DNA of 63,994 nucleotides, the filler included, from Streblomastix strix (taxonomy: Eukaryota): assembly GCA_008636045.1 (NCBI GenBank). It is 3 parts of 3 records of this genome, joined end to end, with 100 filler letters (N's around TTAATTAATTAA, not from the genome) between each part and the next. Parts side by side here need not be neighbours in the genome. Positions count along the whole stretch, not along the records: positions 21,815 to 43,522 come from SNRW01000358.1; 2 more parts are not named here. One strand, written 5' to 3'. Every line of letters starts with the position of its first letter. The first letter of the stretch is position 1. Shown here piece after piece: positions 21,715 through 43,697 of the stretch. The notes under the pieces are model-generated. The model was given only the letters and a program-made list of their open reading frames with translations, was not told where the DNA came from and did not search any database. A program made the translations under genes and the position numbers.

Positions 21715-21814
21715 NNNNNNNNNNNNNNNNNNNNNNNNNNNNNNNNNNNNNNNNNNNNTTAATTAATTAANNNNNNNNNNNNNNNNNNNNNNNNNNNNNN
21801 NNNNNNNNNNNNNN
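21715..21814. other. Artificial contig-joining linker N44-TTAATTAATTAA-N44
   Basis: Exactly 100 nt with a six-frame TAA spacer, identical to the linker at 43523-43622. Confidence 0.97.
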
Positions 21815-22170
21815 TTCAATTTATTATTTAACTTTATTTTTTATTATTATTTAACTTTATTTTTTATTATTATTTCTATTATTTAATTTAATATTACTTG
21901 ATCAATATGCATGAGATTGAATTTTCATTCTTATTATTGATCGTACAAAAAAATATTATTTTTAAACATTACTTTTTTTGTTTATCGCATAATGATTTAT
22001 CATTTTATTGTTTAAGAAATGAGATTCTTTATTTAAATTTAATTATCTTAATTATTATTTTTAACTAAATTTTATTAATGTTGATTTATTTTCTGACTTA
22101 ATGGGATAATCTTAATAAACTTTTTTCTTTCAAATCCTCTATTTTGATTTATTTATCATAAGAAGAATTA

Positions 22171-22600
22171 CCTCCCTACCCAAGTTGCTTTTACATGAGG
22201 AGAAAAATAAGAGAGCCAAAACCATAAAATATATTATAAAAATTCAACATAACCTATCTAAAATATTAGATGTTACAAATAGTAAATAACTATTATTTAT
22301 TATTATTATTTTATATTTATCATTGTTGTTTACCTTATAGAAACACAAATTCGTCTTCATTGAGTGCAATTGAGGTAGATTCGACTTGGATGCTTTACTT
22401 TAAAAGTATTGTTGAAAATGATGGAATTTCAGTAGGAGATTTAGTTGTATTTGCTGATAGATTTTTATGAGTTTTATATTATGTAGTAGTGCTAGGAATG
22501 TTAGATGTATTTATTTGGTTGATAGTTATATGATATTTGGAACAGATAATGTGTGTTTGTGTTTTGTGGAAAAGCCTTTGTTTTGTATGATATTATGATG
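22171..22600 (-). CDS. Exon fragments of an unidentified host gene next to the left edge of the Polinton
   Basis: Minus-strand open stretch NTSNIPSTTTQYKTHKNLSANTTKSPTEIPSFSTILLKQSIQVESTSIALNEDEFVFLQ followed by a GTAAAC donor near 22333. A further exon ends at a GTAATT donor near 22170. Confidence 0.4.
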
Positions 22601-23250
22601 GATTATTATATAAAGTTGTGTAATTTATAGTAAATTGATAATTAAGATCTATTTAGAAAGAGTATGCCTTTGCATTTGAACCCTACATATATTCCAATGA
22701 TTTGAAGCAAAGAATCATCGCTGTGGTTCAGCAACGATAATAAGAAATTTTAAAATTGTAAGATTAAATCGCTTAGTGTCATAGATAAGCAACATTATTG
22801 CCTGCTCACCTTGGTGAGTAAGCTTTGTAAGGAATATCAATCTTACCAGTGTAAGAAAAGGAAAAAGAAAAGGATAAAGAATCGCTGAAATAAAAGAAAA
22901 ATCCAATCAAAATAAAGTATTCATTAGATAGTTCTAATCTTTATCCTTAATTTATTATGTAATAACTGAAGAGACTAGAATATGACAAGGATGACGACGA
23001 TATTATTTAAAATGAGCCATTTGACTTATTTATATTTGAATTAGATAAATATGATTACGATTATTCTTAATCGTCATCTGAAGCAAGAATTAGAGATTTT
23101 TAAATTAATCGTTTACAGAAGATCCATAGTAACAGAAGGATTTATCATTTCTAGAACCTCTCACAAGTGAAGCATTAGAAAATAAACGTTAAATAAAAAA
23201 GAAAATAATACAATCTCCTATTTAAAAAATAGATGATTAAGAGATATTGA
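22595..23250 (+). pseudogene. Degenerate acidic/coiled ORF upstream of (possibly formerly fused to) pPolB
   Basis: Open frame EYAFAFEPYIYSNDLKQRIIAVVQQRQQEILKLQ...DDDDIIQNEPFDLF, with apparent frameshifts at both ends. Confidence 0.4.
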
Positions 23251-23306
23251 CGCAGAAGATTGCTTCGCAGCCTTTAGATGATTAAGATGATTAAGGTGAC
23301 AAATCG

Positions 23307-26300
23307 ATGTAATTTGAAACTTTAAATGAAGATGTTCAAAAATAAAATCGTCATGAATAATTTCAAAAATATCTTGATGAGAAATATAAAAAGATAAGGG
23401 AATAGCATAAGAACAACGAAGAACTATAACTACAAGCATTTAGACTCTTAGATGAGGAAATGAGAGAATAAATTGAATTGAATGATGGCAGTGGTTTGGA
23501 ATAAGTGGATCCAATAGTAAATGTGGAAGCATTATTATTATGTAAACCTATAGATAAAGATAAATTTATAATAGCATTAATTCAAGCTCATGCTGAATAT
23601 TAAGATCCAATTAGAATTGAATAAAGTAGAATTGAAGATGAACCGACGATTTTCTATTATAATAATAGAATTACTTCATTAGAAGATATATAAAATCATT
23701 TAAATTTCGTAATCCATAAGCAAAAAACTAATCATTTTAAGAATGCTTTCGATTTTGGTTATATAGTTGAAGATGCTATTACTAATAATAACGGTTCTAA
23801 TAAAACAGCAGAATATACTATCAATTATCCAAGATAGAATTTAAATACTACATCTGCAAAAAATATTAAGAAAATAATTTTTTCATTTGTTGATAAGGAT
23901 GAATTTAAAGAGTATGTTCCAACAATTATAGTAAATGATTAAGAAAGGACATAAGAATCAACTCTTCATAAGTTTATTGCAATATTTTCTATGGTTGTAG
24001 TTGTTTGTCGATATCCTCTAACCAATAAAGCAATTCAGGAATTATAAAAATATATTAAACGTCGTTAAGTTCATCTTAATGATTCGCAACATCCTAATAA
24101 TTGTGTATTTGAAGCATTATCATTCTTATCTTTGCCAGACAAAACAAAAGAAAAACGACATTAAGATCATGATAGAGTTGTTGAAGGAGTTTAATTGATG
24201 ATTTACTATTATAGTGTATAAGGAAGCTCTACAAAATGCAAAAATATACAGAAATGTATCAAGGAATATTAAGGATTTGATTTTGTAACAGATGGCAAGA
24301 TACTAGCTAAAATATTTAATATAAACATTTGCATTTATACATGCAAAGAGATCCCAATTTAGTCAGATGATGGTTAGACATCAGTTTTGTATGACTAATT
24401 CTACTTAGATTAGATTATCATATCAGATGAAAATGAAGAAGAGGATGATGAAAAAGAGGAATAAAATGACGAAAATAGACCTTAGTTATAAGATTTTAAT
24501 ATATTATTGTTTAAGTTGAAAAATAATTCACATGTTTTATTTGAATCTGATCCTGAGACATTAACAGGTTATCGTAATTGTCCATTTTGCAAACAACACA
24601 GTGTTTCAGTTAAAAATAAGAATAGACATGCATTAAGAGATTTTGAAAGACATGTTGCAAAATGTTAATAAAATAAAGGTAAATAAGTAATATTATTAAA
24701 ATCTCTTTCACCATTTGCTCCTTATATATTTGAAAATAAAAACTTATTAGTATCTTATTGCAAATGAAAAACTAAACGAATTTAAACCTACAAGATATTT
24801 TATAACGTATGATTTTGAAACTATTCCAAGAATAATAAATTAAGGATATGGTAGTAAATCAGTTGTAAATGGTATTGAGGTTCACAACTCTTAATAACAT
24901 ACTGTGCTCGAACTATTATCAGTTGCATCAACAATTAAATCAAAATCTGGAATTAAGAAAATATATTAAACGTCGTTAAGTTCATCTTAATGATTCGCAA
25001 CATCCTAATAATTGTGTATTTGAAGCATTATCATTCTTATCTTTGCCAGACAAAACAAAAGAAAAACGACATTAAGATCATGATAGAGTTGTTGAAGGAG
25101 TTTAATTGATGATTTACTATTATAGTGTATAAGGAAGCTCTACAAAATGCAAAAATATACAGAAATGTATCAAGGAATATTAAGGATTTGATTTTGTAAC
25201 AGATGGCAAGATACTAGCTAAAATATTTAATATAAACATTTGCATTTATACATGCAAAGAGATCCCAATTTAGTCAGATGATGGTTAGACATCAGTTTTG
25301 TATGACTAATTCTACTTAGATTAGATTATCATATCAGATGAAAATGAAGAAGAGGATGATGAAAAAGAGGAATAAAATGACGAAAATAGACCTTAGTTAT
25401 AAGATTTTAATATATTATTGTTTAAGTTGAAAAATAATTCACATGTTTTATTTGAATCTGATCCTGAGACATTAACAGGTTATCGTAATTGTCCATTTTG
25501 CAAACAACACAGTGTTTCAGTTAAAAATAAGAATAGACATGCATTAAGAGATTTTGAAAGACATGTTGCAAAATGTTAATAAAATAAAGGTAAATAAGTA
25601 ATATTATTAAAATCTCTTTCACCATTTGCTCCTTATATATTTGAAAATAAAAACTTATTAGTATCTTATTGCAAATGAAAAACTAAACGAATTTAAACCT
25701 ACAAGATATTTTATAACGTATGATTTTGAAACTATTCCAAGAATAATAAATTAAGGATATGGTAGTAAATCAGTTGTAAATGGTATTGAGGTTCACAACT
25801 CTTAATAACATACTGTGCTCGAACTATTATCAGTTGCATCAACAATTAAATCAAAATCTGGAATTAAGAAAATATATTTCGATTTACGCAAAGAGAATTT
25901 CATTGAAAAATGCCTTGAACAAATGTTCGAAGAAGCTAAATAATTGAAAGAAGATAATCAATACAATGATCCTGAAATACCTTATGATATTTAAATTACA
26001 GTTCTTGTATATAACTCAGCACATTTCGATATGGTATTTGTATTCAGGTATTTAACTAATCCATTATGGCATATTACAAGTTATTTAGGAGATTTCTCAC
26101 ATATTAAGCGAGTAGAAATTAAACATAAAATTTCTGGAGTAACATTATAATTTTTAGATGCTATGCTATTTGTAATAAAAGGAACATTAAAATAATTTGC
26201 TGCAGATATTGGCAATGGCGGAAAAGATGATTAAATAGGAGTATTTCCTTATGATGCCATTAATACAGATAATTATAATGAGGTCTTATCGAAATCTGAA

Positions 26301-28580
26301 CCATTCAGTAAAGAAGATTTTAACAATGAACTTCGAAAAGAATCTATGACAGATGAAACTTATCAAATTTAGCTAGAAGTCAGCGAATAATTTAAAAATA
26401 GGTGGGACTACTTACAATATTATAATGAACAAGATACCAGTATTATGATTAAACCTATCGTAAATTTAATTGAAATGAATTTTGAAAATTGGATTGATAT
26501 GTTTAATTATATTTCAATGGCAAGTTGTGCAAACACTATTAAGTATAAAATAGCTTGTCATGATTTTGATTTGAATGCACGTTACATTAACCAAAATGAT
26601 TCTTCATTCATCAATTTCTCTCCTTTTAATCTTACTGAGGAATATTGGGAATAAAAAGTAAATTCATATAAATAATAAGACTTAAAAGCTAAACAAAACA
26701 TCAAAAACAATGTATAAGAATCTGATTTTGAACAATTTGCATAATTAATTGAAAAAGGATCTTGATGGTTTTGTAAAGCAAGACTTACTAACGAAAATCG
26801 TCCAACACTTGATAGAATTAATAATGCAATTGGTCGTACAAAAGATATTGTTAGATTAGCATGCGTTTATTGTAATATTGCAAGAGCAAATAGAGATGAT
26901 AAAATAACTCGATTAAAGATATAACTTAAAAGATATTATTTAACAAAAGGTTTACCGAAGCTAATTACTAATGAAGATACTTATCACATTTTAATAAATG
27001 AAATTACAGGAGGATTAGCAAATGTTATCCACATATATAATATTAAGGGCGAAACTCATATTAATAAAATGAAATTTGAGGAAAATAAAGTCATTAGTTA
27101 TGATTTAGATCATATCATGACTCATATAACTGGAGTTGATAAGAATTCATTATATCCATCCATGTTTGGCAGACTCAAACATGATTTCATTAAATACACT
27201 GGCAATTAAATTTATACGCTTGATTATAAAATCAGTAGAAACACATGTACAAATGATAAATAAAAAAATTAAGCAATGGAAACTATAAATAATCCACTTA
27301 GATTTTCCTCAAGACAATCTGATATAAATAAAGTATCAATGTTCGTTGAAGAAGTTAAAGGACACATAGATGAAGAATATATCAATGATTTTATTAACTT
27401 TTCACCATTAATTAGAAAATATAAATACAAGGCATTGGAATCAGATATTGGAAAATATATGCATGAACACTAAAAGAAAAATGGATTACCAATTGATAAA
27501 GAAGAATATAAACTTAATTCGTTTCTCTCAACAATGGGATAATTTATGAGTTTTTATTCATATTATGTTTGGTTTCTTATCGATGATTGTCATTTCATAA
27601 TCGATGAAGTTAAATCTGTTAAGACATTCTCTAAACATCTTGGATTTGCGCCTTTTGTGAAACATTTTAGTCGATAACTTATATAAGCAAAGTTAGAAAA
27701 GAATAAAGGACTTGAATAATACAGTAAGATTTCAATGAATATTTCATTTGGTAGCGAAGGTATGAACTAAGAACACTTCTCGTAAATAAAAATATGTGAT
27801 AAAAATGAAACATTTAGAGCTCATCTCAAGGATATCTTTAAAGTAGACCGTTAATTAAATGAAAATTTATATGCTGTTGAATTTGAAAAGTAGAAATTTA
27901 ATTGCAATATTTGCATTTAAGTTGCATTTGCTATTTTAGATTGTTCCAAGTACTGGGTTATGAATTTATATTATAATTTCTTATATAGATGTCTTGATTA
28001 AAATCGATATCTTTATGTTTATGTTGATACAGATTCAATGATATTAGCTGTTGCTTGAGATCCAAATTAAGATTATACTTAAGGATTCTCTGCAATAATT
28101 TCTGATAAATAATTTTACGATGAAAAATTTTATAAATTCTTCCCTGATCCTAGTAAAGATGTATATGATGAAAAGAAATTACTTAGAGTTGCGTATGAAC
28201 ATTGCGGCTCATCATTATTTGCTTTCGCACCTAAGAATTATTGGCTTTTAGAAAATCTTGATAAGAAAAATCCTGAAATTATTAAACTCAAAGGTCTGAA
28301 TTTAAAATCTAATCCGCAAATTATTAAATAAGCATATGAAGAAAATATTAAGAATGGAACAGTAGTTAAAGGTAAGAATATGTCTCTTAGATAACGTGCT
28401 GGAGAAATGAATTAAATTGAAGTTCTCAAAAATGGAATAACAGGATTTCATACATAAATGGTAACATTACCAAATTAGTGTTGTTGTCCATTTATTTATT
28501 AGCTAACTGCAGATAGTTACAAAATTGCAAACGATTTTGGGACGAGCTTACACAGTCTCAAATGTTAAACGCTTTAATGA
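23307..28580 (+). pseudogene. Protein-primed family B DNA polymerase (pPolB) with N-terminal extension, C2HC finger and HNH-like insert; disrupted
   Basis: ExoI YDFET (24808 and 25719), ExoII YNSAHFD, ExoIII YYNEQDT, GGLANVIH, motif A DKNSLYPS (27138-27161), motif B KISMNISFG (27726-27752), motif C YVDTDS (28020-28037), APKNY and KLKG. In-frame TGA at 26763 and 28056, frameshifts and a 911-bp duplication. Start is approximate. Confidence 0.93.
24047..25878 (+). repeat. 911-bp direct tandem duplication inside pPolB
   Basis: gtcgttaagttcatc at 24061 and 24972; aattaagaaaatatatt at 24951 and 25862; AAAATATATT at 24047, 24958 and 25869. Confidence 0.95.
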
Positions 28581-28627
28581 ATTCGCATTTTATGAATTAA
28601 TTTTATTTTTGATTTAATTCAAAAACA

Positions 28628-30020
28628 ATGAATAATGATTGGAATACAATTTACGTTTCTCCACAAAGATAAGGAGGACATTACTTAAGACCGCGAAAAA
28701 GAAAATCGGAAGAAGAAATTTAAATGACATACTCGAAAGATATAAATCAAGCAATATAAGTACAGTTGAGGAATACCGTTAGTTACAAATTATTATGATT
28801 TAAGAAATACTTAGGAAAAATAAAAATTTAGACTTAGAAGAATTTAATGAAGCACTTGATTTACATGAGAATGATGCCGAGCTTCCAGAATTGTAAGAAT
28901 ATGCAAATATAATAAAAGTAGGAGGAAAATCAATAGTATAATGGTTTAATGATTATGTCTATGAAACGGTAAATAGAGGTTAAATAAGAAAGAATATAAG
29001 ATAGGAATTGAATGTTGGTGAGTAATAATTGAGATAAGATGTGGAATTCCCATTCAAATCAAAAGTAAAAGCATTTTAGAAAATACATGGAATACAGTTC
29101 GATCAAAACGAATTTAAAACTGATGACATCGTCGACATTCCAGATTATTAAGTTAAATAACTATACAAGAAGTTTGGAAGACCTTACTTTTCTCAAAATA
29201 CTAGTTCATGGGGAATTGATTTAGTATTCGCAATGAATATATTAATAAAAAAAGCAAGTGCAGTTCATTTATTCTGTATCAATATCAATACCAAATATCT
29301 TGTTGTATATCGATTAGTTAATAAATCAACAGATTAAATTTTAAAAGCACTATAAGATTTAGTGAACCATCAGGATGTGAGATATATTGGAGGTGATGGA
29401 GAAAAAGGATTTGCTGCTCCATAATTAAAAAACTTCTACGAAGGTCCAAATAATAATAATATAAAAGCATTTTTCATTAGTAGTTCATCTGCCCCATTTA
29501 CAAATCATAATAGAATTGTTGATTCGGTTGTAAACGCCGTCAGAAATGCATTCGGATTAGATAAAAGAGCGTTTACAAATCCTGGTTTAATGTAATAAAT
29601 GGTAGAAATTTATAATAATACTCAACATAAAGCTTTTAATAATTATTTTACACCTGGATAAGTCAATATTAATGAAGATCTTGAAGAAATATTCATAAGA
29701 AAACATAATAAAGAATTGCAAGAAGCAAAACATAAATAAATATTTGAAGGACTGCATAACTTTCAAAAAGGAAATATCATAATGATTCGTGTTGATTATT
29801 CTCGAACATTATATGTTTTCTTGAAATAAAGAAGAAATTTTAATTAACTTGCAGAATTTATTACATATGTTCACGGAAATGTTTGTTGTTGAACATTAAG
29901 ACTTTTTAAGGACTTAAAGTCTATTGAAATTCCAATATATTATTGCAAATATGTACGTAAAAATACTAAAGAATTATATTCTCCCAAATTCAAAGATTAT
30001 TGATAAGTATTTCTAATTTG
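28628..30020 (+). pseudogene. Retroviral-like (rve) integrase of the Polinton
   Basis: SWGIDL (D 29218), LFCININTKYL, IGGDGEKGF (D 29395), NHNRIVDSV (D 29521), YNNTQH..F...TP. Frameshifts in the N-terminal part and TGA at 29890. Confidence 0.87.
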
Positions 30021-30091
30021 ACTAGTACTTTATTTATTTAATTTCATTTTACATTTTTATCTATTTAGTTTTAATTAATTTCAAATTAGAG

Positions 30092-30448
30092 ATGGAAAAT
30101 GAAGAAATTAAGGAATTATTTAACTAAAAGTTAGATAACTTGAAAGCAACAACATAAAGTGTTGTCACAAAAGAAAAAGTCAATCGTGGTAGAAAACGGA
30201 AATATTCATCTGAAGAAGAAGCTAAAACAATTGCAAGATAATAGATTAAGATATATGCTGCTAAATATTCTTTATAAAAATAATATTTCAAATCTCATGC
30301 AACAGATTCTTAATACAGATTAATTAAGAGACCCCAAAAAATAATATTAAGTAACGAATCATTAATATAAATTCATGAAATTGTTGATTAATTTGATGAA
30401 CATATTATAAAATTGAAAGATATAATTTCTACTTAAACCGAAGAATGA
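30092..30448 (+). CDS. Small basic protein (118 aa), putative DNA-binding
   Basis: MENEEIKELF...NRGRKRKYSSEEEAKTIARQQIK...QTEE*; frame is intact. Confidence 0.6.
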
Positions 30449-30469
30449 AAATGAAATAAATTCCTATCT

Positions 30470-31561
30470 TATTTGCAGCCTCACTGCTTATGTCGTAAGC
30501 TCAAAATTATTATTCTTATTTTTCTAAATCTAATGATTACTGTATTGCAGCAAGTTCATTCAATTCATTGTCTCCAGGTTCTCCATTCTGCATTGCTGTT
30601 TTTGGAGGTTTTGAAAGTTAAATTATACGAATCGCCTATTAATAATCCAATATAGGAGGTGTAAAATTAAGTACAAATCCCAAATCAGCTCCATCTTCAA
30701 TTAGCGTTTCTATTTTTGCTGTTTAATCTTTGATTTAGTTGTATAATCCTGCTAGTTCACTTAGTTGTTTTTCTTAAAATAGACTATTAAATACATTTAT
30801 AGCCTATTTATATATCGCCTCACATTATTTTCTAGTTTAAACATTATTATACATTTAGAAGTAATTTGCCTAAGTAAATGCATAATTTGTCTATTCATTT
30901 GCTTTTAATGTTGCAATCCAGCCTATAAAGTATTTTTTCCAAAGGTATGGAGCTAATCTTAAGAAAGATAATTATTATTTTCGACGAAGGGCTTGATTTG
31001 TCCTTCCATGGTTTTCATAAACTGAGTGCCTCATACTTTTAAGAACAATCTGAGCAGCTTTATTAAATAATTATTTTGCAACGGCTGCTGGAATTAATGG
31101 CCTAATTGTTTCATCATACCAAAATCCATGATTATGATCAACTCTTGCTGAATTTGTAGGATATTTGCCTTAATATTAACTCAGCATGAATCTTTATTTC
31201 GTTCAACAGCACGATAATCATCAATAGAATAAAATCCTCTTGAATTAGTCTCAGTTATATTTTTAGTTGTATTTTCATCGTTATCAAGAACTTCATTCTA
31301 AACTTTCCAATTTTTCAAACCTTTATCATTAATCCAATTCTATGCACTTTGTTCATTAACTAGTGTTTTAACTCTTTTAATATCTTTTGCCAATCTTCCA
31401 ACAATATAAATTAACACAGATCCAACTTAATCGGCTAACGCTCTTTATTATGCCCTACGTTTTTCACCTATTCTTCCATTTCCAACTCTAGCTGTAATAT
31501 TTTCAAAAGTAATATTTTATCTTGGAAGTTTTGTTTTTGGTTATCCTCGAATGAAACCCAT
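30470..31561 (-). pseudogene. Uncharacterised Polinton protein with one frameshift (~31200)
   Basis: MGFIRGQPKTKLPRQNITF...WINDKGLKNWKV...FYSIDDYRAVE, then continuing in another frame MLSQYQGKYPTNSARVDHNHGFWYDE. The 3' end is approximate. Confidence 0.55.
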
Positions 31562-31589
31562 ATATCTTGCTTAATTTTTTACATTATAC

Positions 31590-32549
31590 GGAAGATATTC
31601 ATTAGATCCTTTTTTGTAGATATCTTCATATACTCTTCGACTTCTAACACCTGAAATTATTTAATTACTAGAAGCAGAAGGACCTTGGCCTTACGTTGAT
31701 GACGATGATGAACTTGATTGATTCATATTTGTTATGCTTTAGTTGAAAGATAAAACTTAAATTATGATAATGAAATGAAGATGGATGATCGAAATCCATT
31801 TTAAGAATGAAACAAATACTCTTTAGAGCATGAATGCAGTGAGTATGGAAGATAATGAATAAAAATAAGCAACGCAAAGCTCTGCTAATGAATCCAGAAG
31901 GGATCAGTTTTTGACTTATTCATCATGGATAAATACAAAATAATCGAATTAAAGTTAAGTTTTAAAGAGTACATCTCCATCTCTTTAGCCTTTAGACCGC
32001 TAACATAGTTAGTAGAGTGAGAATGTAATGAGTTCAATGATTTCTCCAAGAGCTATTGTAAAAGTCGGTTCTTTATTTGAAAAGGAAACTCAACCAGTTA
32101 CTTAAGGTTTAACTCGACTACGATCATCAATATTTGAAGAAACAATCATGCCAAATCCTTCTATTTGCAGATGGTTATTAGATATAATTAGTGAAGATGA
32201 ACATATGACAAAAGAATATGCACATTTCATTTTATCAGGACCTTAATTAATAAGAGTTGTTGCATACATATATGAAAGTCCTGAAAGTTAAGTTGAAATA
32301 ATTGTTGAAGATGAAACTTGCTGCAGTAAATTTTGTCATGATTGTAAAGAAACAATAACTGATATTGCAATTTCAAACGTGAATATCTTAACATTAGATA
32401 TGGATAAAGTAAATTTATTGAGAAATTCTAATAAAATATGTCTGCAAAAAGTTAGAAAAATATCTAGTATACTTGATTTAGGAGAAATATCATCTAGAAT
32501 AATGAGAGCTATATCATATAGATTAATGTAAGTTCTTTCTAAAGTATGA
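31590..32549 (+). pseudogene. Uncharacterised Polinton protein
   Basis: Long frame LDPFLQISSYTLRLLTPEIIQLLEAEGPWPYVDDDDELD*F...EDETCCSKFCHDCKE...VLSKV* with TGA at 31719 and 31776. Confidence 0.55.
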
Positions 32550-32596
32550 GCATAACATATGTTAATTAATTTATTTTTGTTAGAAATCAACTTAAA

Positions 32597-35500
32597 ATGG
32601 ACGGAGATTTGCATATGCTTGATGTAGTCTTGAAACATGATGAGGTATTGTTCGGCTCTTCTCGTTATAACGTTGTAGGTTTAGTGGATTAAGTTATAAA
32701 CATTAATAATTAAACCAATAATATTAATAACGATCCAGTACAAGATGTATATACAAGACCAGAGGTAAATGAATAATTAAATAAAAAAGCTGAAAAAACT
32801 GATCTTGATGATTATTATGACAAAAGTGAGACATTTGCCAAAGAAGAAGTCTATACAATTACTGAAGCAGATTAGTTGCTCAGTGAAAAAGCTGACAAAA
32901 CTGAATTAATTGATTCTTATAGCAAAAGCGAGACTTTTGCCAGAGGCGAAGTCTGTAGCAAAAATGAAACAGATGAATTGCTTGACGAAAAACTTAATGA
33001 AGCCGTACTTGATGACTACTATAGTAAAACTGAAACTTATGCAAAGATTGAAACATATAACAAAACAGAGCTTAATTCATTTCTTGATGAAAAGGCAGAT
33101 ATTGGCATATCTTACGCAAAATCTGAAGATGTTGCATTGCTGTTATTGAAAGCTGATGAAACATAATTGATCGATTCTTACGCAAAATAAGAAGATGATA
33201 CAATGTTACTGTTGAAAACAGATAAAACAGACTTAATAGATTCTTACACAATGACTGAGACCGATTAAAAATTAAAGATGAAATCAGACAAAACAGATTC
33301 GATTAATTCATATTCTAAATCAAAAGATGATGTGTTATTATTACTGTTGAAGGCAGACAAAACAGATTTGGATAACTTTGTTGATTTATCATCAGCATAA
33401 ACAATATTAGGATAGAAATAATATGGTATAATTTCTGTGTAAAGTGTATCAAAACTGTGTAAAAATGATGCATAAATCTTATTAGCAGGAGGTGGAGATA
33501 TGTTAGTGAATTCTTTAGTAACACAACCATAGTTATAAGAATTTGGAGATATTGCATAAGGTAAATCAAAAAGTTATGTATTTGCAACGACAGAAGAGAT
33601 GAATACTTGGATGGAAAATTAAGAAAATGTTGCAAAATTATCTATTGGTGATAACTTATATATTGTAGATAAGGAAGTTATGGATTATTGGTGGGATGGC
33701 GCAAATTTTCGAGTATTGGAAGCAGAATTACCTGATATCAGTAATGTTGTTGCTATATTAGGTGCAGCAACTGGAAGTGGTAATGCAATAAATGACGTAT
33801 CAATCGATGGAAATACAATAACACCAGCGAAAAATTCTACGTTTTTTACAACTGGATTTGATCAATCTATTACTGGGATGAAAATATTTACAAGCACTAT
33901 TATTTCTAACGGTATTTAATATTCAAGATATGATATTAACTCTGTATTTCTTGCTGATGGTGGAGTTAGAGCAATATCTGATATAAATGCAAGTGTTGAT
34001 TTGAGTAACTATAATAATAAAACAAAGACATATTCTTAAATTGAAACTGATACCTTGCTAAATAATAAAGCAAATACTGGTGTTTCAAACACTAAAGGTG
34101 AAGATGATGAATTATTACTAGCGAAAGCTGATAAAACATAATTAATAGATTCTTATACTAAAACCAAAACAAATAAACTCTTAAATTATAAGAGAGATAC
34201 TGGAGTTTCAAATACAAAAAGCGAAGATAATGTACTCCTATTACTGAAAGCAGATAAGACATAATTAACAGATTCTTACACAAAAACGGAATCAGATAAC
34301 TTGTTAAATAATAAAGCGAATACTGGAGTTTCCGATACAAAAGGAGAATATGACACATTATTATTTGCAAAAGCTGATAAGACATAATTGATTGATGCAT
34401 ATTCTAAATCTGAAGATGATGCACTACTACTATTGAAAGCAGATAAGATATAATTGATTGATTCTTACACAAAAACTGAGACAAATAATCTCTTAAATAA
34501 TAAGACTGATAATGGATTTTCATATACAAAAGGTGAAGATGATACATTATTATATGCAAAAGCTGATAAAACATAATTGATTGACTCACACACTAAAACA
34601 TAAACTGATAATCTATTAAATGATAAGGCAAATTAGTCAACAACATATACGAAAACAGAAACAGATCAATTGATATCTTAAATTGATACAAGTGATGTTG
34701 ATTTAAGTAGTTACTACACAAAAACAAAAACAGATGAATTATTCTATGAAAAGGCAAATACGACTGATCTGTCTAAATATATGACCTTATGTATTGCATA
34801 AACAATTTATGCAAACAAGACATTCAACAACTCTTGCAGATTTGTAAGTTCTAGTGATGAAATGTCGACTGTAACTGGTTCATCATTTATCAAATCTGGT
34901 GCTGATGATAGCGTTGTATTACTTGAAGCTGGTGGTGCTAAACCAATATCTGAGTTTGGTGGTGCTCCAACTTACTTATCAAATTATTATACAAAAACAT
35001 AGATTTTTTCACAAACTGAAGCAAATAATAAATTTGTAAGACCGGAAGGTTCTATTCAATAAACAATAACAGGAAGAGTAAAATATGTAAGTTCATTTGG
35101 TGAAACTTTTTATGAGACATAGGACCCAGGTGCTAATACTTATTTGACAATGTCTGAAGTGGATGCAAAATTATCATCTAAAATGGATTAGAGTGCATTA
35201 GGTAATTTAGTTAATACAATATAAGATTAGACTATTAATGGATCTAAGACATTTATGAGTAACGTTAGTACCACAGGATTTGCGAAAACAGGTAAAGATG
35301 ATACATCAGTTTTTTTTAGTTGGTAGTGGAGATATGTTATTATCAACATTTGGAGGATTAGAATTAGTAAATATTAATTACAAGAGTAATGTAGTTAGTC
35401 CAACTTCAATTTCGTCACTAAAATGTTATAGATTTGGATCACTAGTCAACTTTTACGGTTATATATATATGGGTAATGGAGCGGGTGCATCTGGTGCATC

Positions 35501-35714
35501 AGTTGCAGTTTGTACACTTGAAAGTGCTGGATTTCCAAAGCATTTATTTTATGCAAATGATATAGTTTTTGCTGGCTCTGCACCACATGTTGCAAATTTC
35601 CGATTTGGAACTGATGAAAAGGTTACGATAACTATTAGAGCACTAACTGGAACAGCGGGTTTAGCTGGTGCTGCATCAACATACGTCAATGTTACCCATC
35701 CTGCAGCAAATTGA
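32597..35714 (+). CDS. Phage-tail-fibre-like virion protein (~1040 aa) with YTKxExDxLLxxKA repeats and a C-terminal beta head; one frameshift near 35315
   Basis: Repeats KADKTQLIDSYTKTETNNLLNNK.NTGVSYTKGEDD.LLL; shaft motifs QSITGMKIF and QTINGSKTF; head CYRFGSLVNFYG..LESAGFP..FRFGTDEKVTI (supplied ORF 35280-35714). Confidence 0.75.
34061..34680 (+). repeat. 123-nt (41-aa) coding tandem repeat in the fibre, with one extra 66-nt sub-unit
   Basis: Unit starts at 34061, 34184, 34307, 34496 (+66) and 34619. Related shorter repeats lie at ~32750-33370. Confidence 0.85.
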
Positions 35715-35830
35715 AAACAAAGTAATCAAAGTTAATTTCACCAACTTATTGGTTTAATATACATCTGTTACATAGGTAAAATGAAAGAGTGAATGTATTT
35801 GTAAATTATTTTTGTTATATCCCAAATATA

Positions 35831-36385
35831 ATGACAGTATATATTGATGAAGCATTACTTGACGCAGCTGGACTAATGGATTTTTCAGAATTATACGCAT
35901 ATATTAGAGAAAGAGAATCTAGACATCCTATTGAAACAGCACCTCCTGTTCCTGTTGGAGATTAAACATTATTAGAGTAAGTTAAGATCAATGCAAATAT
36001 TCTTGAAAATACAAATGAAGTTTTCGTACCACCAGAACCAAATATGCCAGTAAAAATAGATTATGGATAATAAATTGTAAATAAACCTTTTGTCTTTAAT
36101 GAGATGCAACCTATACTGATTGTTAATGGTGAAAGATTTACACTAAATTGTTTTGTAACTATAAAGTAATAATTTAAAGGATATGTTTTCAATTCATATC
36201 CTTAAGAGGCCAAACCAAAGGATAATATTAAAATAATTACTATAATCTGTAATAACTTCATTAATAATATTAATTAATTCTGTTATATTGACGAAAATGG
36301 TTCTTATATTTATGTTGAAGATGATAGAGAAATAGCTGCAAATACTTCAATTGTAATATCAACAACTTATAACAAAATAGTTTGA
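35831..36385 (+). CDS. Polinton protein (184 aa) with a C-terminal beta-rich, head-like domain
   Basis: Intact ORF MTVYIDEALLDAAG...FTLNCFVTI..YPQEAKP..CYIDENGSYIYV..IVISTTYNKIV*. Confidence 0.65.
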
Positions 36386-36398
36386 AGCACTTAAATAA

Positions 36399-37426
36399 AT
36401 AAATTATGATTCAAATAATGATGGAAAAGTTGATATTATGGATGTATGGAATGGAAGTGGATAAGGAACTCATGAAGCTTAATCTTATGAGTACGATGTT
36501 ATGAAAAAATAATCTGATTTGGTTGATCATCATATTGAAGGAACAGTTTTACATAATTTCTTGAATAATGACATCAAACTAATAGATAAGTTTGGAATTT
36601 ATAAAACTGATCGTGCTGCATATTATATTTAAGATGGTCCAATTGTTATATTCAGTTTTGGTGCTAAGCTTGAAGATAACATACAAAATATCTATATAAT
36701 ATTTTCAACAGTTGACAACAAAATTTTACCTCCATATGCTAAATATCACGCATTGCATGCTAAGTAAAATGAATTTAAGGGATATTGCTAGTAAATATAA
36801 TAGCTAGATAAATCAACCTCATAATAAGTCATAATCAGTTGTAAATTAGATAAAAAAAAGATTGTGAATTCTCTGGTACATATGTAGTAGATAATTATTA
36901 AAACTTGATTGTTGCAAATGAAAATATTCTTTAGAGCGCCAATAGTATTGGTAATGAAAATTAACCGGAGTCAATCATAGATGATGCGATAATAAAATGT
37001 GATAGAAAACTTGAAACTCATTCAATTAAATAATATACAATTAGTAATGAAATAGGTTAATTGGATATTGTTTAAAGTTTCAATTTAGGATCTCCTCACA
37101 ATCCATTTTATATTATTGATGATGGAGCTTGTAAAGTTTGTGTATTCAACTTATTACTCGAGACTAAGGGATTCTACTAAAAGTACTAACCAGTTTCTCC
37201 AAATCCTGATGAATTAGTTCCCTTGAATAATAATAAGTTGGTGTTTCCAGCAACTTTAATGATAACAGTTGGTGAATCATGTCAAACAGATACTTTTGTA
37301 GGTTATTTTATTGTGAATAGTTCTACAAAATAGCACTCATTTTCTGTTGATAGACCTGTAGTTATATCGCCATAATCATCTAATGTACTTTACTATTGTG
37401 TTAGTGGATTACATTATGTCGACTGA
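36399..37426 (+). pseudogene. Polinton protein with an N-terminal DxNxDG Ca-binding-like motif and two beta-rich domains
   Basis: (ATA)NYDSNNDGKVDIMDVW...; frameshift in the A-run near 36855; ends YCVSGLHYVD*. The start codon appears mutated ATG to ATA. Confidence 0.55.
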
Positions 37427-37489
37427 TGAGGTAAATTAAAAGGATATTGTTTATTTTTGTTTAATCGAAACAAGATTAATATTCAAAAC

Positions 37490-37804
37490 ATGCCTGTCGG
37501 GATTTACAGTAAAATTAAATTATTAATATCTAAAGTTGGCAAATGTTTGTCATGGGTGAATAATCATGTTGTTAAATCTTATGTACTTCCTGCTGCAAAA
37601 TAATTTAGTGGATTACCTCCTGGAGGAAGCTTTGTAACAAAAGGAATTGAAGCATAATCATCTGCTCCTGATGCATTTAATGTGCAAGGATCTAAATAAG
37701 AAGCGAAGAATAAATTTAACGATTTAATGGATGATCCATATTTGCGGAATTTGCCAATAGAATCATTAAGTAGATTAATTAAACTTCGCGGAGGTCAATC
37801 GTGA
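37490..37804 (+). CDS. Small protein (104 aa) with an N-terminal amphipathic helix; candidate adenovirus pVI-like membrane-lytic protein
   Basis: MPVGIYSKIKLLISKVGKCLSWVNNHVVKSYVLPAAKQF...LIKLRGGQS*; lies directly upstream of the major capsid gene. Confidence 0.6.
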
Positions 37805-37900
37805 GACCGAACGTAGTTCGACAACCTGAAAGGTCGCTGCGCAAGCTTGTAGCCAAATCGGAAACAATTTAGACTGGTGTAATAACATAATCTAAAGTAA

Positions 37901-37909
37901 TTATTTTTG
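37901..37909 (+). promoter_or_regulatory. TTATTTTTG gene-start motif of the Polinton (also at 28603, 32571, 35806, 37451 and 39675)
   Basis: Exact 9-mer ending 16-17 nt before the ATG in five genes and 30 nt before it in a sixth. Confidence 0.65.
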
Positions 37910-37926
37910 ATCTTTTACAAATCAGC

Positions 37927-39638
37927 ATGGATCGTTTTCTTGCAAAAGCAATCTAAGTTCAAGGATTAAATACAATTGATTCATAACTCGAGTCTAATAC
38001 AGTAGTACCATTCAAAAATGACGGATAACATCATTATTCAATTAAAGATATTAAACCTGAATTATAGATGCAAGCGTTGTTTGATAAAGAGATCATCATT
38101 AGTTTATCTGATAGTGATCATGATGTAATCCAAACATAAAATTCGTTCTTATCTATTGTGCTGACTGCTAATCTATAATTTGATAATAAGTTCGAATAAT
38201 TTGATGACTCATACAAGGATGGAGTAATATTATTTGTCGGATTAAAGTCAGGAAGCAATATAATTCGAGAATATACTGTATATCATCGTGAAAGAACTAT
38301 TAATGAAAGCTTGCAAAATGATGCAGCAATTGAATCATTCATCTATAACACTATTAAACCGAAGTCTGAAAAAAAAATAGAAAACATATTCATTCATTAT
38401 ATGAAAATATCCATAAATTTGATACATCTGCATGAGGAACTTATAATACTGTGAGAGAGATTGAAGAAGCTATTGGATAATAAACAAAAGTTCCATACTT
38501 AATGCCAGTTAGATTCAAAATCTAAGAACCTTTAGATGATTTGTTGATATTCTCAGCTATCAAGGATTATCCCAACGGAATGTTTGGAGATCTTAAGATT
38601 AAATTCAAGATTAATCCTAATGCATTTGTGATTGCATAAGTTCATCCAACAGTATCTTTGGCTAAATATTATACAATGAATAAGGATGAATTACTAAGTT
38701 CAGGTTAATAGAAGTTGATGGATATTGATTTATTCTTCCGTAATTGGAGCTTAACATTCTAAAATACGAAGCAATTTACATAACTTGGATGTGCGGCAGA
38801 TTTGATAATAAGTATCAGAACTGAATAACTTACTCCAAATGGATTGAACAATCTTGTTTGTGATATTTCACCAGTAACAGTTTCAATAAAGAATTACGAA
38901 GTAACTGAAGTAACTGCAAACATGGCTGGATATAAAGCAACAGATGCATGTCTTGCAAGAGTTAGAGATTTTTTCAGTACCAAAGCGTTTATAGTTCCAG
39001 CTTAGAGAGTTGAAACATGGCCATTCCCAATTTCAGCAACACTTACTCGAATAAGAACTTCATAAAATATTCCATTATCACATGTTACAGATTTTGTATT
39101 GTTATTCCCTAAAGATACAAAATGTATTACTTGTTTCGAAAATCCATGTTATTAAAATATGTAACTGATGACTTGTGGAAGAAGCTTCCCAGATATGCCC
39201 ATGAATACTATTGATTAATAATTCTTCCAGTTATAACGCAATGTAAATAATTTGGATCTATTATTTGAAGCAACAGATGAATTTGAAAACGCATTAACAA
39301 CTCCTGGAAATACTGCAACAAGAAGACTTAATGCTCATACAGATTTAACTTCTTTCATGATTTCGTTACAATGTAAGAGAAATAGTAATGGAACTCTAAC
39401 TTTTGATGGACTAGATACGATGAATCAAAATATTTCAATCGAACTTTTTGGTGCATTAATTTATCAAGGAGTAACTGATAATTATTAAAATGTTGATATT
39501 AATGGAAAAAGACCTCCACCACCAATTTTATGCACAGTTCATGATACATTCTGGTTGTTTAGTCCCAATCATGGAGGTTCATGCTATTATGATACAACAC
39601 ATTCATTTAACGAAGTTGTTAATGAAATTGGTGCGTGA
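37927..39638 (+). pseudogene. Putative major capsid protein (double jelly-roll type), ~570 aa; frameshift near 38375 and TGA at 38433
   Basis: Beta-rich ORF: QNSFLSIVLTANLQF, LFVGLKSGSNIIREYTVYH, PLDDLLIFSAIKDYPNGMFGDLKIKFKINP, FMISLQCKR..LTFDGLDT, ILCTVHDTFW. Size, position and resemblance to parabasalid-type Maverick capsid proteins support the call. Confidence 0.72.
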
Positions 39639-39699
39639 ATATGAAAAGTAATGAAAAAATAAAGAGTTTTAAATTTATTTTTGCTTTAATCTCAAAGAT

Positions 39700-40122
39700 A
39701 TGTTCGTTGCACCAAATAAAAAACATTTTATTATCACTCGTGATCAAATTTAAATCTAAGATCGATCATTTGTAAGAAGATTGCCCGTAGATTTTGTAAA
39801 TTCTTCGAATGACAGAAGAATAACATTCGTTTAATGCATAATTCCATTGAAGATTTAAAAATACGATCATGACCTACTTGCATAAAACGAACCTGATATA
39901 ACTCCAACAGAGCATAGAAAAATATCGTTACATTCGACAATTGTCAAAGAAGAATAATACAACGATTACTATGTTGGAATGTGTGATGAATAAAGAACTT
40001 AGATAATATTTCAGTAAATGAATCATTCTCCATTGATGTAGTTTTTGTTCAAAGATTACGACGGAAATTTATTTGTTACTAACCATTTGGACTTTATATT
40101 GGAGTTAGAGCTAAGATATTGA
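39700..40122 (+). CDS. Putative minor capsid (penton) protein, 140 aa
   Basis: Follows the MCP. C-terminus FLFKDYDGNLF...FILELELRY* matches the hxhxDxxG...hxLxh ending typical of Polinton pentons. Confidence 0.6.
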
Positions 40123-40166
40123 GCTAATTTTAGTGTATACAGTATTTTTTGTTAAATGAAACATTG

Positions 40167-40193
40167 TGACACGCTGTGACACGAGATGACACG
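40167..40193 (+). repeat. Three direct TGACACG repeats at 10-bp period (putative protein-binding site)
   Basis: TGACACG at 40167, 40177 and 40187. Confidence 0.75.
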
Positions 40194-40276
40194 TTTAATC
40201 TTTGACAGTCGATCAGGAAGTCGCTCTAGGACTCCGCTAAAAAACCATTGTTGAAAACATTCCAGAAATATAAATA

Positions 40277-40585
40277 ATGGAGAAATTTAATCCAGATCCT
40301 ATTGAATTTGAAAATGTTAACGAATTTAAGTAATATTTTGCATTAAACAAGGACGAAATGGAGAAGATATCAACGCTTAAATTGAACATTTAATTTTAAA
40401 TAAAAGGATGTTATAGAATTCCTTGATTGAAAGGAATAATATCGTTGAGATTGTGGCCTAAAGAATAGAAGTTAGAAAAATAATCTGAAACTATTGAGTA
40501 AATGTAGAATATTGACTAAAGATTAAAAAATTTAATAAATGCATTAATGATTAATAATATTATATCTGAAGAAGATTTAATATGA
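40277..40585 (+). pseudogene. Small Polinton protein with an in-frame TGA at 40424
   Basis: MEKFNPDPIEFENVNEFKQYFALNKDEMEKISTLKLNIQFQIKGCYRIP*LKGIISL...EEDLI*. Confidence 0.6.
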
Positions 40586-40588
40586 TTT

Positions 40589-41364
40589 TTATGTTACAAT
40601 TTCAATTGTAGTTCCATCATTATTATATATTACAAGTAAAGCTTCTCTTTTTGCAAGTTTTACATATTATTACCAAAATCTTCCTTATCAATTGGTATTG
40701 ACGACTTATAGAAGAATAAATTAAATTTTTATCTGTTAAATGCTCCAAAAAAATATATTGAGTCAACATTAGATTTAATTGCTGCATCAAGACCTATTAT
40801 ATCTTGTAAACAGAGGAAGTAAGTAATTCTTGGTTAACTGTTCTTAAATAATTTCTTGAAAAGAGAACTCGTTTTATTTTTGAAAATGGACATTGCATCA
40901 TCGAATAAAACAATTGTATGAGGTGATTTAATTCTAAAATCATTGGCTTCAGTTTTATTTAATATATTTTACTTAGACTCTTCTTAAAAATATTTATCAA
41001 TTTTTTGTTATACAACTTAATCATAAGCTTATTTTCCTTCAATCAATTCATCAAGAACACCATTAATTTCGACATATGGAACAATTTTAGTTGGACTTTC
41101 AAATAAATGTTTCATTTTTTGATATGTTTGATCGTTATTAGTGTCCGTAATATAAATAAATAAAGTATAACAATGAAATTTTAACTAACTAAGCTTAATA
41201 TGTTCTCTGAATACATTGTAAGTCTTTCCGTTACCACGTTATCCTATCAGTAAGTTAAAAGAGTTGTAAGTAAAATTAAGTTCTTTATGAATCAAAGATT
41301 AAATATCATGCTTGTCCTAATCAATATTTTCTAAAAGTGCATTTACATGCTTTGCTAATGCCAT
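40589..41364 (-). CDS. A32/FtsK-like genome-packaging ATPase
   Basis: Walker A LIGQRGNGKT, Walker B HTIVLFDDAM, then KNSQPRITYFLCLQD (the Arg-finger position reads Ser). No TGA at the expected end, so the 3' boundary is approximate. Confidence 0.88.
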
Positions 41365-41526
41365 TCGTATTTAATATTTAAGCAAATTCTTTATTACTAT
41401 GGTAATTTACGTTGATTAGCATAGCATTAGATCTGCGCCAATTTTTTAATTTTTTATTTTTTATTTTCTTTTTATTTTAAAATTTCATTTTAGTTTTCTT
41501 AGAAAGGCACCGTCCAAAAGATAATA

Positions 41527-42232
41527 ATGGAATTTGACAATATAACACCAAACAAAGATTCAGAAGATGATAACGGCATGATTAATCAAGAATTTATTTA
41601 ATACAGACTTAGCTTGCTTAATCAAGCAGTATAAATTATTGTCTATATTAAGAATATCTAACAAAAATTGAAGACAATTCGAAAATATATTGAAAATGCT
41701 AAGATATTGAACTTTATAGAAGATAGTTTAATCGATTCATATCGTGATCTTATGTATGAACATTCAAGAAGATTAAAAAATAAAAAGTTATCTAAAAAGA
41801 CATTAATTGACATTAATAATATGCGAAATAAGTTGTAAGACTAGCATGAAAAAGATATTTAAATTATTTATTAATATAACTAATCAAATTAAGAAAGATT
41901 GACAAAATTCTATGATGAACATGCTGGAAAACCGTTGAATGCAATTTTATATCTTGGAAAAATTAATTCCAACTACGATAGCTTTAGTGTAGTAAGACGG
42001 AATTATTCACATTGAAAGAGACAACGAAATTGTATACATGCTGCCTATGTAAAGTGCCGAGAACACGTACGAACTAATAAAGAATGATGACATTCTCACA
42101 ATAATGGCACTCACTCGCTCAAAAACCAAAATTGCAACAATTAAAGTCAATGACAAGTTTTTGCCAGTAGCAATAACAGAAATACCAATTGATACACACC
42201 AACAGATATCCATCAAACGGAGATCTTGCTGA
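41527..42232 (+). pseudogene. Uncharacterised Polinton-terminal ORF(s), frameshift near 42005
   Basis: MEFDNITPNKDSEDDNGMINQEFIQYRL...HAGKPLNAILYLGKINS, then HIERDNEIVYMLP...KRRSC*. Confidence 0.5.
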
Positions 42233-42932
42233 ATAAATTACTCAGTTCGTAAAAACCCTAGTAAGTGGGCAAGTAAATTTCACGGGGGAGTGAGTTTAAC
42301 TTATTCATTCACAAAATAATTCGCTCATCAATTAAAATCCATTAGTATGAATACAAAGTATATCTTCACAAATAATTATATATATTTTACTTTTAACTTT
42401 CAAATATGTATCCTTAGGCGTAACAAAAAACATAAACTTTAAATTCACTTTTTTCAGTCAAAACAATTTATTAATCTCTAATGCCAGCAAAATCAACTCA
42501 AAACACCACTATGTCAAAACACCCCCAGATTGATAGTGACGCACGGAGACGGTTGTTTGCATCTTGATTTTACAAAATATGACCATTTCTGTCACTTCCA
42601 GCTCAAAACTGTTCTACAAACACAATTCGTCATGCAAAACAGCTCTATCAGCATTACTTTTTAAATTAATTTTCAAAATTTAATCAAAGGAGCGGACGGC
42701 GCTTTTCCTACATTATTGATATTTTTGTAATTTTTTTTAGTAATATAATGGTTTAAACCTAACAATATATATTTTTGTAATTTAGAAATCTTACCACATC
42801 AGTTATAATTATTATACATCAATTTAATTGAACATTTAAAAATTTAAATATATATTTTTAATAAACTATTAATAATAATAATAATTTTAGATTTTTATTT
42901 TTAGTTTGAAAATTTTCAGTTACAAGTTCAAA

Positions 42933-43522
42933 ATGAGCTATGGAAGATAGTTTTGGATCATAATCAAGTTAAAACTCTCATTATTTTAGTATTAATGCAG
43001 GTATATAACATCATTCTCAGTTACAATCACCTTCAAAAGTTGAAAATTAATTAATAAATTTTCCTCGAATTGATAGATAAAAACCTCATCTTCGAATTAA
43101 TGCCAAACCATTTATTCCTAAAGCAAAATAATAATACCATCCCATGCTAAATACTCTATTAATTGTTGAATAATAATAATAAATACCTATAGCCATTAAT
43201 TAAATCTCAGTTTTAAACTTTTAATAATAATAAAAATAAACAAATTTATTTTATTATAAAGGGAAATATTGTTGAAAATTGAAAGTATTTCAATTAATAA
43301 TTATTATTTACTTTGTTTACTATTTATTTATACAGGATCCAACCAAACGACAAAGGATTGATTAGTTATTTGAATCTGACATTATTTAAATTTAAGCTTT
43401 ATCTGAAAAATTGATTGAAGAGAAAAAATTTAAAAAAATTCGGGAATTAATTATTACTAAAAGATTTCAGAGTAAAAATCATAAATTAATTATTATTTTT
43501 TATTCTTCAGTTCAGAGTTAAA
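42933..43522 (+). pseudogene. Host-gene fragment with a PAM2-like motif and a kinase-tail-like segment, truncated at the contig end
   Basis: HLRINAKPFIPK at ~43087-43122; after a CAG acceptor, DPTKRQRIDQLFESDII. The ATG is out of frame with the main reading. Confidence 0.3.
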
Positions 43523-43622
43523 NNNNNNNNNNNNNNNNNNNNNNNNNNNNNNNNNNNNNNNNNNNNTTAATTAATTAANNNNNNNNNNNNNNNNNNNNNN
43601 NNNNNNNNNNNNNNNNNNNNNN
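43523..43622. other. Artificial contig-joining linker N44-TTAATTAATTAA-N44
   Basis: Same structure as 21715-21814. Confidence 0.97.
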
Positions 43623-43697
43623 CAAATATTATTATATAATTATATATTATTTTAATATTCATATTCATTTTTTACTTATTTTATATTTTTCAAACAG

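Follow-up and report, generated by a model that had tools for sequence, protein, structure and literature searches.

Does the 63,994-nt window from Streblomastix strix hold a near-complete endogenous Polinton-type virus with a full virion module, as a sequence-only reading had proposed, and in what state is it? The window is the whole stretch of DNA that was analysed, composed of three contigs with N spacers between them, and the element fills a separate 21,708-nt contig within it (Table 1). Because the contigs were joined by spacers, the genes flanking the element in the window are not its neighbours. The element type and the anaerobic protist host had been named correctly, and we consider it highly probable that the contig carries a copy, damaged by mutation, of a Maverick/Polinton-type virus that belongs to the 'Metamonada' capsid group and is present in high copy number. 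It likely resides in S. strix, and its genes read TAR as Gln.

Gene content and genetic code

Under table 11, the region of 22.6–42.3 kb yielded only scraps, and under table 6 a dense gene array. TAA and TAG made up 265 of the 335 Gln codons (79%) in 20 element ORF pieces and 317 of 449 (71%) in six host ORFs, and every ORF end examined was TGA (10/10), in line with the free in-frame TAA/TAG and TGA ends already noted from the sequence. When the major capsid protein (MCP) was aligned to 69 distant relatives, residues facing TAR codons were Gln in 24% of cases (320/1344) compared with 3.6% at other codons, and at one TAA of the MCP 67 of the 69 carry Gln. Gln-Gln pairs between the MCPs of the window and a related locus, L001, had TAR on at least one side in 14 of 15 cases and on both sides in 8. 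The element genes read TAR as Gln, as the host does. TGA as Cys, prompted by two in-frame TGAs on Cys columns, was rejected: at those columns the relatives encode Cys under table 6, TGA terminates the ORFs, and a third in-frame TGA lies outside Cys columns.

The gene content comprises a family B DNA polymerase of the protein-primed type (pPolB), a putative RVE-type integrase, a fibre-like gene, an MCP, a penton candidate and a putative A32-like ATPase. Sequence searches against Pfam, PHROG and PDB assigned none of the window ORFs to a capsid, integrase, ATPase or protease family.

Table 1. Features of the element contig (window positions)
Feature	Position	Strand	Basis and remarks
Element contig	21815..43522	.	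N spacers at both bounds; neither terminal inverted repeat (TIR) nor host gene recognised on contig
ORF 5' of pPolB	22639..23247	+	no Pfam or PHROG match
Broken pPolB: N-terminal region (likely terminal protein), vOTU-like domain, Zn finger, exonuclease, endonuclease-VII/HNH insert, palm	23307..28580	+	motifs in order
Tandem duplication, 911 nt, inside pPolB	24032..25878	+	921 nt identical
vOTU-like cysteine protease domain of pPolB (NNCVFEAL ... NSHVL)	24060..24545	+	motif; repeated within duplication
RVE-type DDE integrase (WGID, GDGEKGF, NRIVDS)	28628..30050	+	motif only; frameshifted near 28718, likely again near 3' end
Small ORF, basic patch	30092..30448	+	ORF call under table 6; PHROG search without assignment
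Gene split by frameshift near 31196	30501..31726	-	indel in X1, X2, X3
239-aa ORF with Cys cluster	31830..32549	+	no profile match
Fibre-like gene	32546..35714	+	22/41-aa repeats (KADKT..DSY.K) and C-terminal head
Likely single gene with breaks around 36373 and 36852	35831..37426	+	indels relative to relatives
104-aa basic ORF preceding MCP	37490..37804	+	also carried by relatives
MCP pseudogene, likely double jelly roll	37927..39638	+	homologues; published Foldseek match of family member; Atlas on P0161
Penton candidate, open 140-aa ORF	39700..40122	+	position and C-terminal pattern
A32-like packaging ATPase (GQRGNGKT, VLFDDA, CLQD)	40600..41364	-	motif only; frameshifted near 40677
Right-end ORF(s), possibly one frameshifted gene	41527..42232	+	ORF call; profile searches without assignment

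The pPolB reported earlier is present with its motifs ordered (motif A reads DKNSLYP), but a frameshift near 24740 and the tandem duplication disrupt the gene, as do TGAs in frame at 26763 and 28056. A relative, P0130 (65% identical), matched PF03175 at E 3.2e-7, above the cut-off, and endonuclease VII at E 3.2e-9, and the gene, though broken, is of the protein-primed family B type found in Maverick/Polinton-type elements. Its vOTU-like domain had been overlooked; it gave no profile match, and its Cys and His are recognised by motif, the catalytic positions being retained as Cys in 8/8 and His in 12/13 of the rows with letters (14 rows aligned, with relatives down to 27% identity). The duplication may be either a recent event or an assembly artefact.

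The three integrase motifs, which we take to be an integrase pattern, were accompanied by no Pfam, PHROG or PDB match. The ATPase has Walker A, Walker B and polar sensor motifs, with a weak P-loop match (ResIII, E 0.041) and no match in an A32 profile search. The repeat gene, which presumably encodes a fibre, matched phrog_5004 (function not known) at E 4.6e-21, and its head lies in a different frame from the shaft, with a break near 35290. The earlier labels 'pVI-like', 'basic protein' and 'head-like' were supported by no search, and the two head-like ORFs are likely one gene with two frameshifts, the pieces of which are bridged by each of P0199, P0209 and P0288; the indel at 36373 had a depth of 5133/5238 in X1.

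As stated earlier, no adenain-like protease was recognisable: no protease family was found in 26 element ORFs and 55 further frames, and the motif Q-x4-7-CG-aromatic was absent in six frames, though the test is weak (Pfam also misses the integrase and the ATPase). An adenain/Ulp1-like maturation protease is found in about 74% of Polintons. A minus-strand self-BLAST found no TIRs between the contig ends (best E 0.077), and neither a 6-bp target-site duplication nor a host flank was found on the element contig; the contig may end short of the element ends, or the TIRs may have decayed.

The capsid protein and its relatives

The best 120 of 271 MCP homologues were all labelled Streblomastix strix. 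One homologue, P0001, is 99% identical to the window MCP and comes from a contig that is likewise 21,708 nt long, and P0014, P0020 and P0028 are 67–71% identical and match, by eye, an S. strix MCP sequence published by Bellas et al. 2023 (PMC10120064). A published member sharing the N-terminal sequence of P0014, about 70% identical to the window MCP, matches the Sputnik MCP at E 2.6e-12 in Table S3 of that source. In an Atlas search with P0161, a relative of 43% identity, the neighbours included Preaxostyla (0.98), Parabasalia (0.98), Preplasmiviricota (0.97), a Capsid_N cluster (0.97) and Capsid_NCLDV. No significant jelly-roll match was obtained from profiles, PDB or our own low-confidence model: AlphaFold of the relative P0002 (56 close sequences) reached pLDDT 38, Foldseek gave some NCLDV capsids at E 0.07–0.7 only, which were not counted as matches, and VIA-align gave a best Z of 3.8 with jelly-roll chains unlisted, which excludes nothing. 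On the strength of the published model of the family member and the Atlas search, the window MCP is likely a double-jelly-roll capsid protein.

The MCP family is broad (531 representatives), a deep alignment of it comprised 72 sequences at 22–78% identity, and the 12 S. strix-labelled MCPs in a tree of 49 rows formed one clade (12/12, support 1.0). Across 365 codons, the window and L001 MCPs differed with pS 0.80 and pN 0.18, which supports purifying selection on the MCP under table 6, presumably before the decay. The clade and this selection both support the long co-adapted lineage that had been suggested. Uninterrupted MCP models of 562–570 aa are present among relatives, and the window gene shifts frame near 38370 and is then interrupted at 38433 by an in-frame TGA, where 62 of 69 distant relatives carry Cys. 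A real intron, as in the P0001 model, was rejected, with relatives colinear across the site; public gene models such as P0001 span the breaks of such copies via false introns.

The 140-aa ORF following the MCP is a penton candidate, its C-terminal pattern being what we take to be a penton mark. It has one relative, also of 140 aa (66% identity), and a model from this two-sequence alignment reached pLDDT 34, with unrelated chains as best hits (Z 3.2, rmsd 3.7, 90 aligned).

Damage, copy number and alternative readings

The 'near-complete' description failed on the state of the genes, seven of which, including MCP, pPolB and ATPase, are broken by frameshifts, in-frame TGAs or the 911-nt duplication; as assembled, the uninterrupted MCP, ATPase and polymerase genes of an intact provirus are absent. 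Indels relative to relatives were seen in the integrase, the 30.5–31.7 kb minus-strand gene, the 35.8–37.4 kb gene and the ATPase. Judged from its sequence, the copy appears pseudogenised or mis-assembled rather than near-intact, and is likely a dead copy of a known family.

Related contigs numbered 10,156 in X1 and 2,240 in X2 (a second study), most of them 90–95% alike. A metagenome scan retained 1 locus from 538 candidates, and no relatives were found among the viral contigs scanned. At L001, the related MCP adjoins a gene that we take to be glycosidase-like, with an intron-like split, and the third contig of the window carries decayed paralogues between host genes, both in support of integration of the family; this copy is likely integrated in the genome of S. 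strix, an oxymonad of termite guts. A replicating but unintegrated virus, sequenced along with the protist cells, would suit a contig that is almost wholly element with no host flank recognised, but the putative integrase gene, the seven broken genes (MCP and polymerase among them) and the relatives adjoining host-like genes make it extremely improbable.

Some of the breaks may be assembly errors, and the contig might be a chimeric short-read consensus of near-identical, partly intact proviruses, its breaks and duplication being artefacts and intact, possibly active copies existing elsewhere. The duplication is identical over its 921 nt, the related contigs have a huge summed depth with none across the whole stretch, the uninterrupted MCP models would fit, and Bellas et al. 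demonstrate such errors in short-read EVEs. X1 contains only 0.37 of the sampled words, and at several positions no contig carried the window's letter, in a comparison that covered the contig interior outside the duplication. Elsewhere, however, X1 has the window's letter at low depth (about 7/53,405 at 38375, 10/39,186 at 37980 and 51/60,193 at 33510) and a different letter in the great majority, as expected for one real divergent copy, and missense changes also hit conserved sites (palm motif A, the HNH His, and Ser and Tyr columns changed to TAR), which makes a chimera unlikely. A capsid-less transposon with unrelated proteins in the putative capsid ORFs would agree with the missing profile, PDB and own-model jelly-roll matches and with older literature that called trichomonad Polintons capsid-less; against the published structural match in PMC10120064, the capsid clusters among the Atlas neighbours and the wide MCP family under apparent purifying selection, we regard it as very unlikely.

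For the damaged copy of a Maverick/Polinton-type virus, the gene set, the code, the many related copies and the breaks were observed, and the life cycle of its ancestors we infer as follows. Intact ancestors would have replicated linear DNA by the protein-primed polymerase, with the vOTU domain cleaving off the terminal protein; the integrase would have inserted the element into the host genome, and the ATPase packed DNA into double-jelly-roll capsids bearing the fibre. The lineage presumably multiplied in its host until most Gln codons had turned to TAR, and this copy would then have decayed, now yielding neither polymerase nor capsid. We think it unlikely that the oxymonad lineage is still active and confined to TAR=Gln hosts, with a minimal virion module (no adenain, a 140-aa penton and the pPolB-borne vOTU as sole protease), and that intact copies in the host population still form particles.

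Relation to known elements

A paper of 2023 had already described the virus family and its code: Bellas et al. (PMC10120064) list 820 MCP hits for S. strix, note table 6 and a Sputnik-like fold of the MCP, and propose a 'long-term association', so the expectation that standard-code scans would miss the family was mistaken. By MCP homology and table-6 genes, the window element belongs to their S. strix or 'Metamonada' MCP group, sharing MCP family, species label, code and inference. The passages and tables consulted give no gene map of an S. strix element, and the locus tag of the window copy was not found in the supplement as consulted; relative to the EVEs described there, the window element adds the vOTU-like and endonuclease-VII inserts, a fibre-like gene, the 140-aa penton candidate and a list of breaks. 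The family is a clear case of a DNA virus lineage adopting the reassigned code of its host; this would close standard-code hosts to it and makes the family a model for code as a host-range barrier. That the code restricts the lineage to table-6 hosts, as had been claimed, suits this branch, but the wider MCP group includes parabasalid and amoebozoan elements. The code-barrier point has been in print since 2023, and the finding is real but ordinary; what this copy modestly contributes is a gene map for an ungrouped group, the polymerase inserts, a short penton candidate and the warning on false introns.

With the Mavericks/Polintons (Polintoviricetes, animal groups 1 and 2; adintoviruses), the element shares the TP-vOTU-Exo-Palm pPolB with a homing-endonuclease insert (PMC11161782, where the vOTU domain of Polinton pPolB was already known), as well as a putative RVE integrase and ATPase, a likely MCP and a length of about 20 kb. 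It differs from them in that no adenain was found, TIRs were unseen and the code is non-standard, and its MCP is too divergent to be placed among their groups; Metamonada elements were left ungrouped by bioRxiv 2026.06.19.733378.

Tlr1 of Tetrahymena is a protist element with an RVE integrase, MCP, penton and ATPase and no adenain, a set that the window element probably shares, but differs in having a helicase fusion in place of a full pPolB. Its host also reads TAR as Gln, and the Mavericks of Trichomonas vaginalis use the standard code. The latter, with parabasalid and Entamoeba elements, fall in the same MCP network group as the window element and share about 32% MCP identity with other S. 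strix MCPs (Table S5), T. vaginalis being a further anaerobic metamonad in which such elements reach massive copy numbers.

Genetic code and relatives of the element

The element was confined to the middle of the three contigs that make up the window, and the outer contigs carried host genes that were open solely under table 6, including a Dus protein (E 2.7e-36) and a cyclin; these genes are not neighbours of the element. Under table 11 the element yielded only scraps, whereas table 6, which reads TAA and TAG (TAR) as glutamine, gave a dense gene array. TAA and TAG accounted for 265 of the 335 Gln codons in 20 element ORF pieces and for 317 of 449 in six host ORFs. Across 69 distant relatives of the major capsid protein (MCP), Gln occupied 24% (320/1344) of the positions facing TAR codons of the window MCP, 30% of those facing CAR codons and 3.6% elsewhere, and two TAR codons stood opposite Gln in 67 (TAA) and 59 (TAG) of the 69. 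All 10 element ORF ends checked were closed by TGA. The claims of the sequence-only reading that the element uses TAR as Gln and that its ORFs end in TGA were thus borne out. When the window MCP was compared over 365 codons with a related MCP on a separate DNA piece (L001), the proportion of differing sites was 0.80 at synonymous and 0.18 at non-synonymous sites, and a TAR codon was present on at least one side at 14 of 15 shared Gln positions. The replicating ancestors were therefore under selection in table 6, and the TAR codons did not arise through decay.

The use of the host code by elements of S. strix is already known: PMC10120064 reports it, reads it as long-term association, counts 820 MCP hits for S. 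strix and places these elements in an MCP group that also includes parabasalid and amoebozoan MCPs. Metamonada elements stay ungrouped in bioRxiv 10.64898/2026.06.19.733378, a giant virus genome in code 6 is reported in PMC13524828, and 10.64898/2026.10.13.758929 and PMC6431247 give further background. Among the open-access papers and preprint texts listed in literature searches, none mapped the genes of an element from S. strix.

The MCP piece had 271 homologues among 2,200 candidates, the best 120 of which were all labelled Streblomastix strix, and the best match (P0001, the public gene model of this MCP) was 99% identical to the window and came from a contig of 21,708 nt. The same label was attached to 34 of the 36 matches found with the polymerase piece. 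In a midpoint-rooted tree of 49 rows, 12 S. strix-labelled MCPs picked from the 120 formed a clade with support of 1.0 and three sub-branches, outside which the closest relatives were ∼43% identical. The family was also contained in the read set of a second study (X2; 2,240 contigs); the other read set, X1, is perhaps the source data and lends no independent support.

Features of the window
Feature	Positions	Strand	Remarks
DUS3-like dihydrouridine synthase	2589-5000		host gene, intronless under table 6
N spacers	21715-21814; 43523-43622		each N44-TTAATTAATTAA-N44
Contig of the element	21815-43522		21,708 nt
pPolB frameshift	near 24740		
pPolB TGAs	26763; 28056		
Integrase indel	28718		vs contigs of related copies
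Further indel	31196		vs contigs of related copies
Indels, head-like ORFs	36373; 36852		vs contigs of related copies
MCP	37927-39638		
False intron in P0001	38365-38441		jumps MCP frameshift and stop
MCP frameshift	near 38370		
MCP TGA	38433		
MCP TAR codons	38781; 39003		TAA; TAG
140-aa ORF	39700-40122		3' of MCP
ATPase indel	40677		vs contigs of related copies
Short stretch	42590-42757	minus	
Large paralogous ORFs	43690-49618; 60415-63994	minus; plus	head to head around remnant
Second remnant	52141-59600	both	third contig
ATPase-like ORF of remnant	53106-54491	minus	

State of this copy

The sequence-only reading had described a near-complete virus with a full virion module. That overstates its condition: seven genes are broken, including MCP, the protein-primed polymerase (pPolB), integrase and ATPase, as follows from the frameshifts, TGAs and indels tabulated and from a 911-nt tandem duplication in pPolB (921 nt identical). 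Palm motif A of pPolB is also altered, and in the fibre-like gene the head falls in a different frame from the shaft. The two head-like ORFs proposed earlier are likely one gene, in which related copies differ by two indels. As judged from its sequence, the present copy would produce neither polymerase nor capsid. No TIR was found on the element's contig.

Some of the breaks may be assembly errors: section 7 of PMC10120064 shows that breaks of this kind can arise from assembly, X1 covered 0.37 of sampled words, and at some positions the window's letter occurred in no contig. In favour of genuine breaks, the window's letter was found in X1 at other positions, at a depth of 4–51 against 10,000–60,000 for another letter.

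Public gene models conceal such breaks: P0001 contains a false intron and several further models merge adjacent element genes, so that protein databases overstate intact copies. Between 25700 and 41400, differences from related copies showed an unusual spectrum, with A<->T transversions as frequent as transitions (X1 counts: T>A 238, A>T 196, A>G 238, C>T 194). The short stretch near the contig's end recurs, with 54% identity, 3' of the MCP of another copy in model P0076; it may be a repeat of the family or belong to its subterminal sequence.

Protein assignments

The fold check proposed for the MCP, run on its full-length relative P0002, gave a predicted structure with a pLDDT of 38 and fold searches without a significant match. 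When 1.84 billion representatives were searched with a profile, 531 MCP relatives were retrieved, many of them full-length, and all 20 looked up lacked an informative name. In the Atlas, the relative P0161 adjoins Preaxostyla, Parabasalia and Preplasmiviricota clusters and one with 24% Capsid_N (scores 0.97–0.98), and Table S3 of PMC10120064 lists Foldseek matches of a family member from S. strix to the Sputnik MCP (E 2.6e-12) and to a C. elegans Polinton MCP. These neighbours and published matches make a double jelly roll likely, although our own model did not show it. The 140-aa ORF had a single relative, of equal length. The C-terminal pattern of the ORF resembles that of pentons, which makes it a candidate penton.

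The pPolB relative P0130 passed PF03175 (E 3.2e-7) and matched endonuclease VII (E 3.2e-9). The RVE integrase and A32-like ATPase are motif calls, profile searches with both having returned no match, and the putative fibre-like gene rests on repeats and a match to a PHROG of unknown function. The stated lack of an adenain-like protease stood insofar as none was recognised in 26 + 55 frames or by motif, a weak test because the same libraries also miss the element's ATPase and integrase. Overall, the earlier observation was partly confirmed and its interpretation partly supported.

Relatives among host genes and proposed replication

Two findings support integration of the family: on L001 the MCP lies beside a host-like gene, and the third contig carries decayed pPolB and ATPase remnants amid host genes. 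On L001, the MCP and an intron-split-looking gene stand head to head at 624-1601 (minus) and 1923-3083; the MCP retains an open 387-aa N-terminal part without upstream element genes, and the split gene is presumably an alpha-mannosidase. The third-contig remnant is much more decayed than the element. It comprises fibre-like pieces, an ATPase-like ORF and, on both strands, pPolB pieces that share 33–55% identity with members of the family; a cyclin gene flanks it on one side and a large gene resembling those for surface proteins on the other. The two large paralogous ORFs around it have signal-peptide-like starts and repeated beta-rich units, share 72–76% of their DNA sequence across stretches of several hundred bases, and had no match in Pfam.

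Gene set, code, copy number and breaks are what the analysis shows. By analogy with Polintons, as described in PMC4028283, PMC4405056 and PMC11161782, intact members would replicate by protein priming, with the vOTU cleaving the terminal protein, integrate through the RVE integrase and package DNA into jelly-roll capsids driven by the ATPase. In an alignment of 14 rows, the vOTU-like Cys in the N-terminal part of pPolB was present in 8 of 8 rows with letters and the His in 12 of 13; no profile match confirmed the domain. A pPolB with an N-terminal vOTU-like Cys/His pair is the layout described in PMC11161782.
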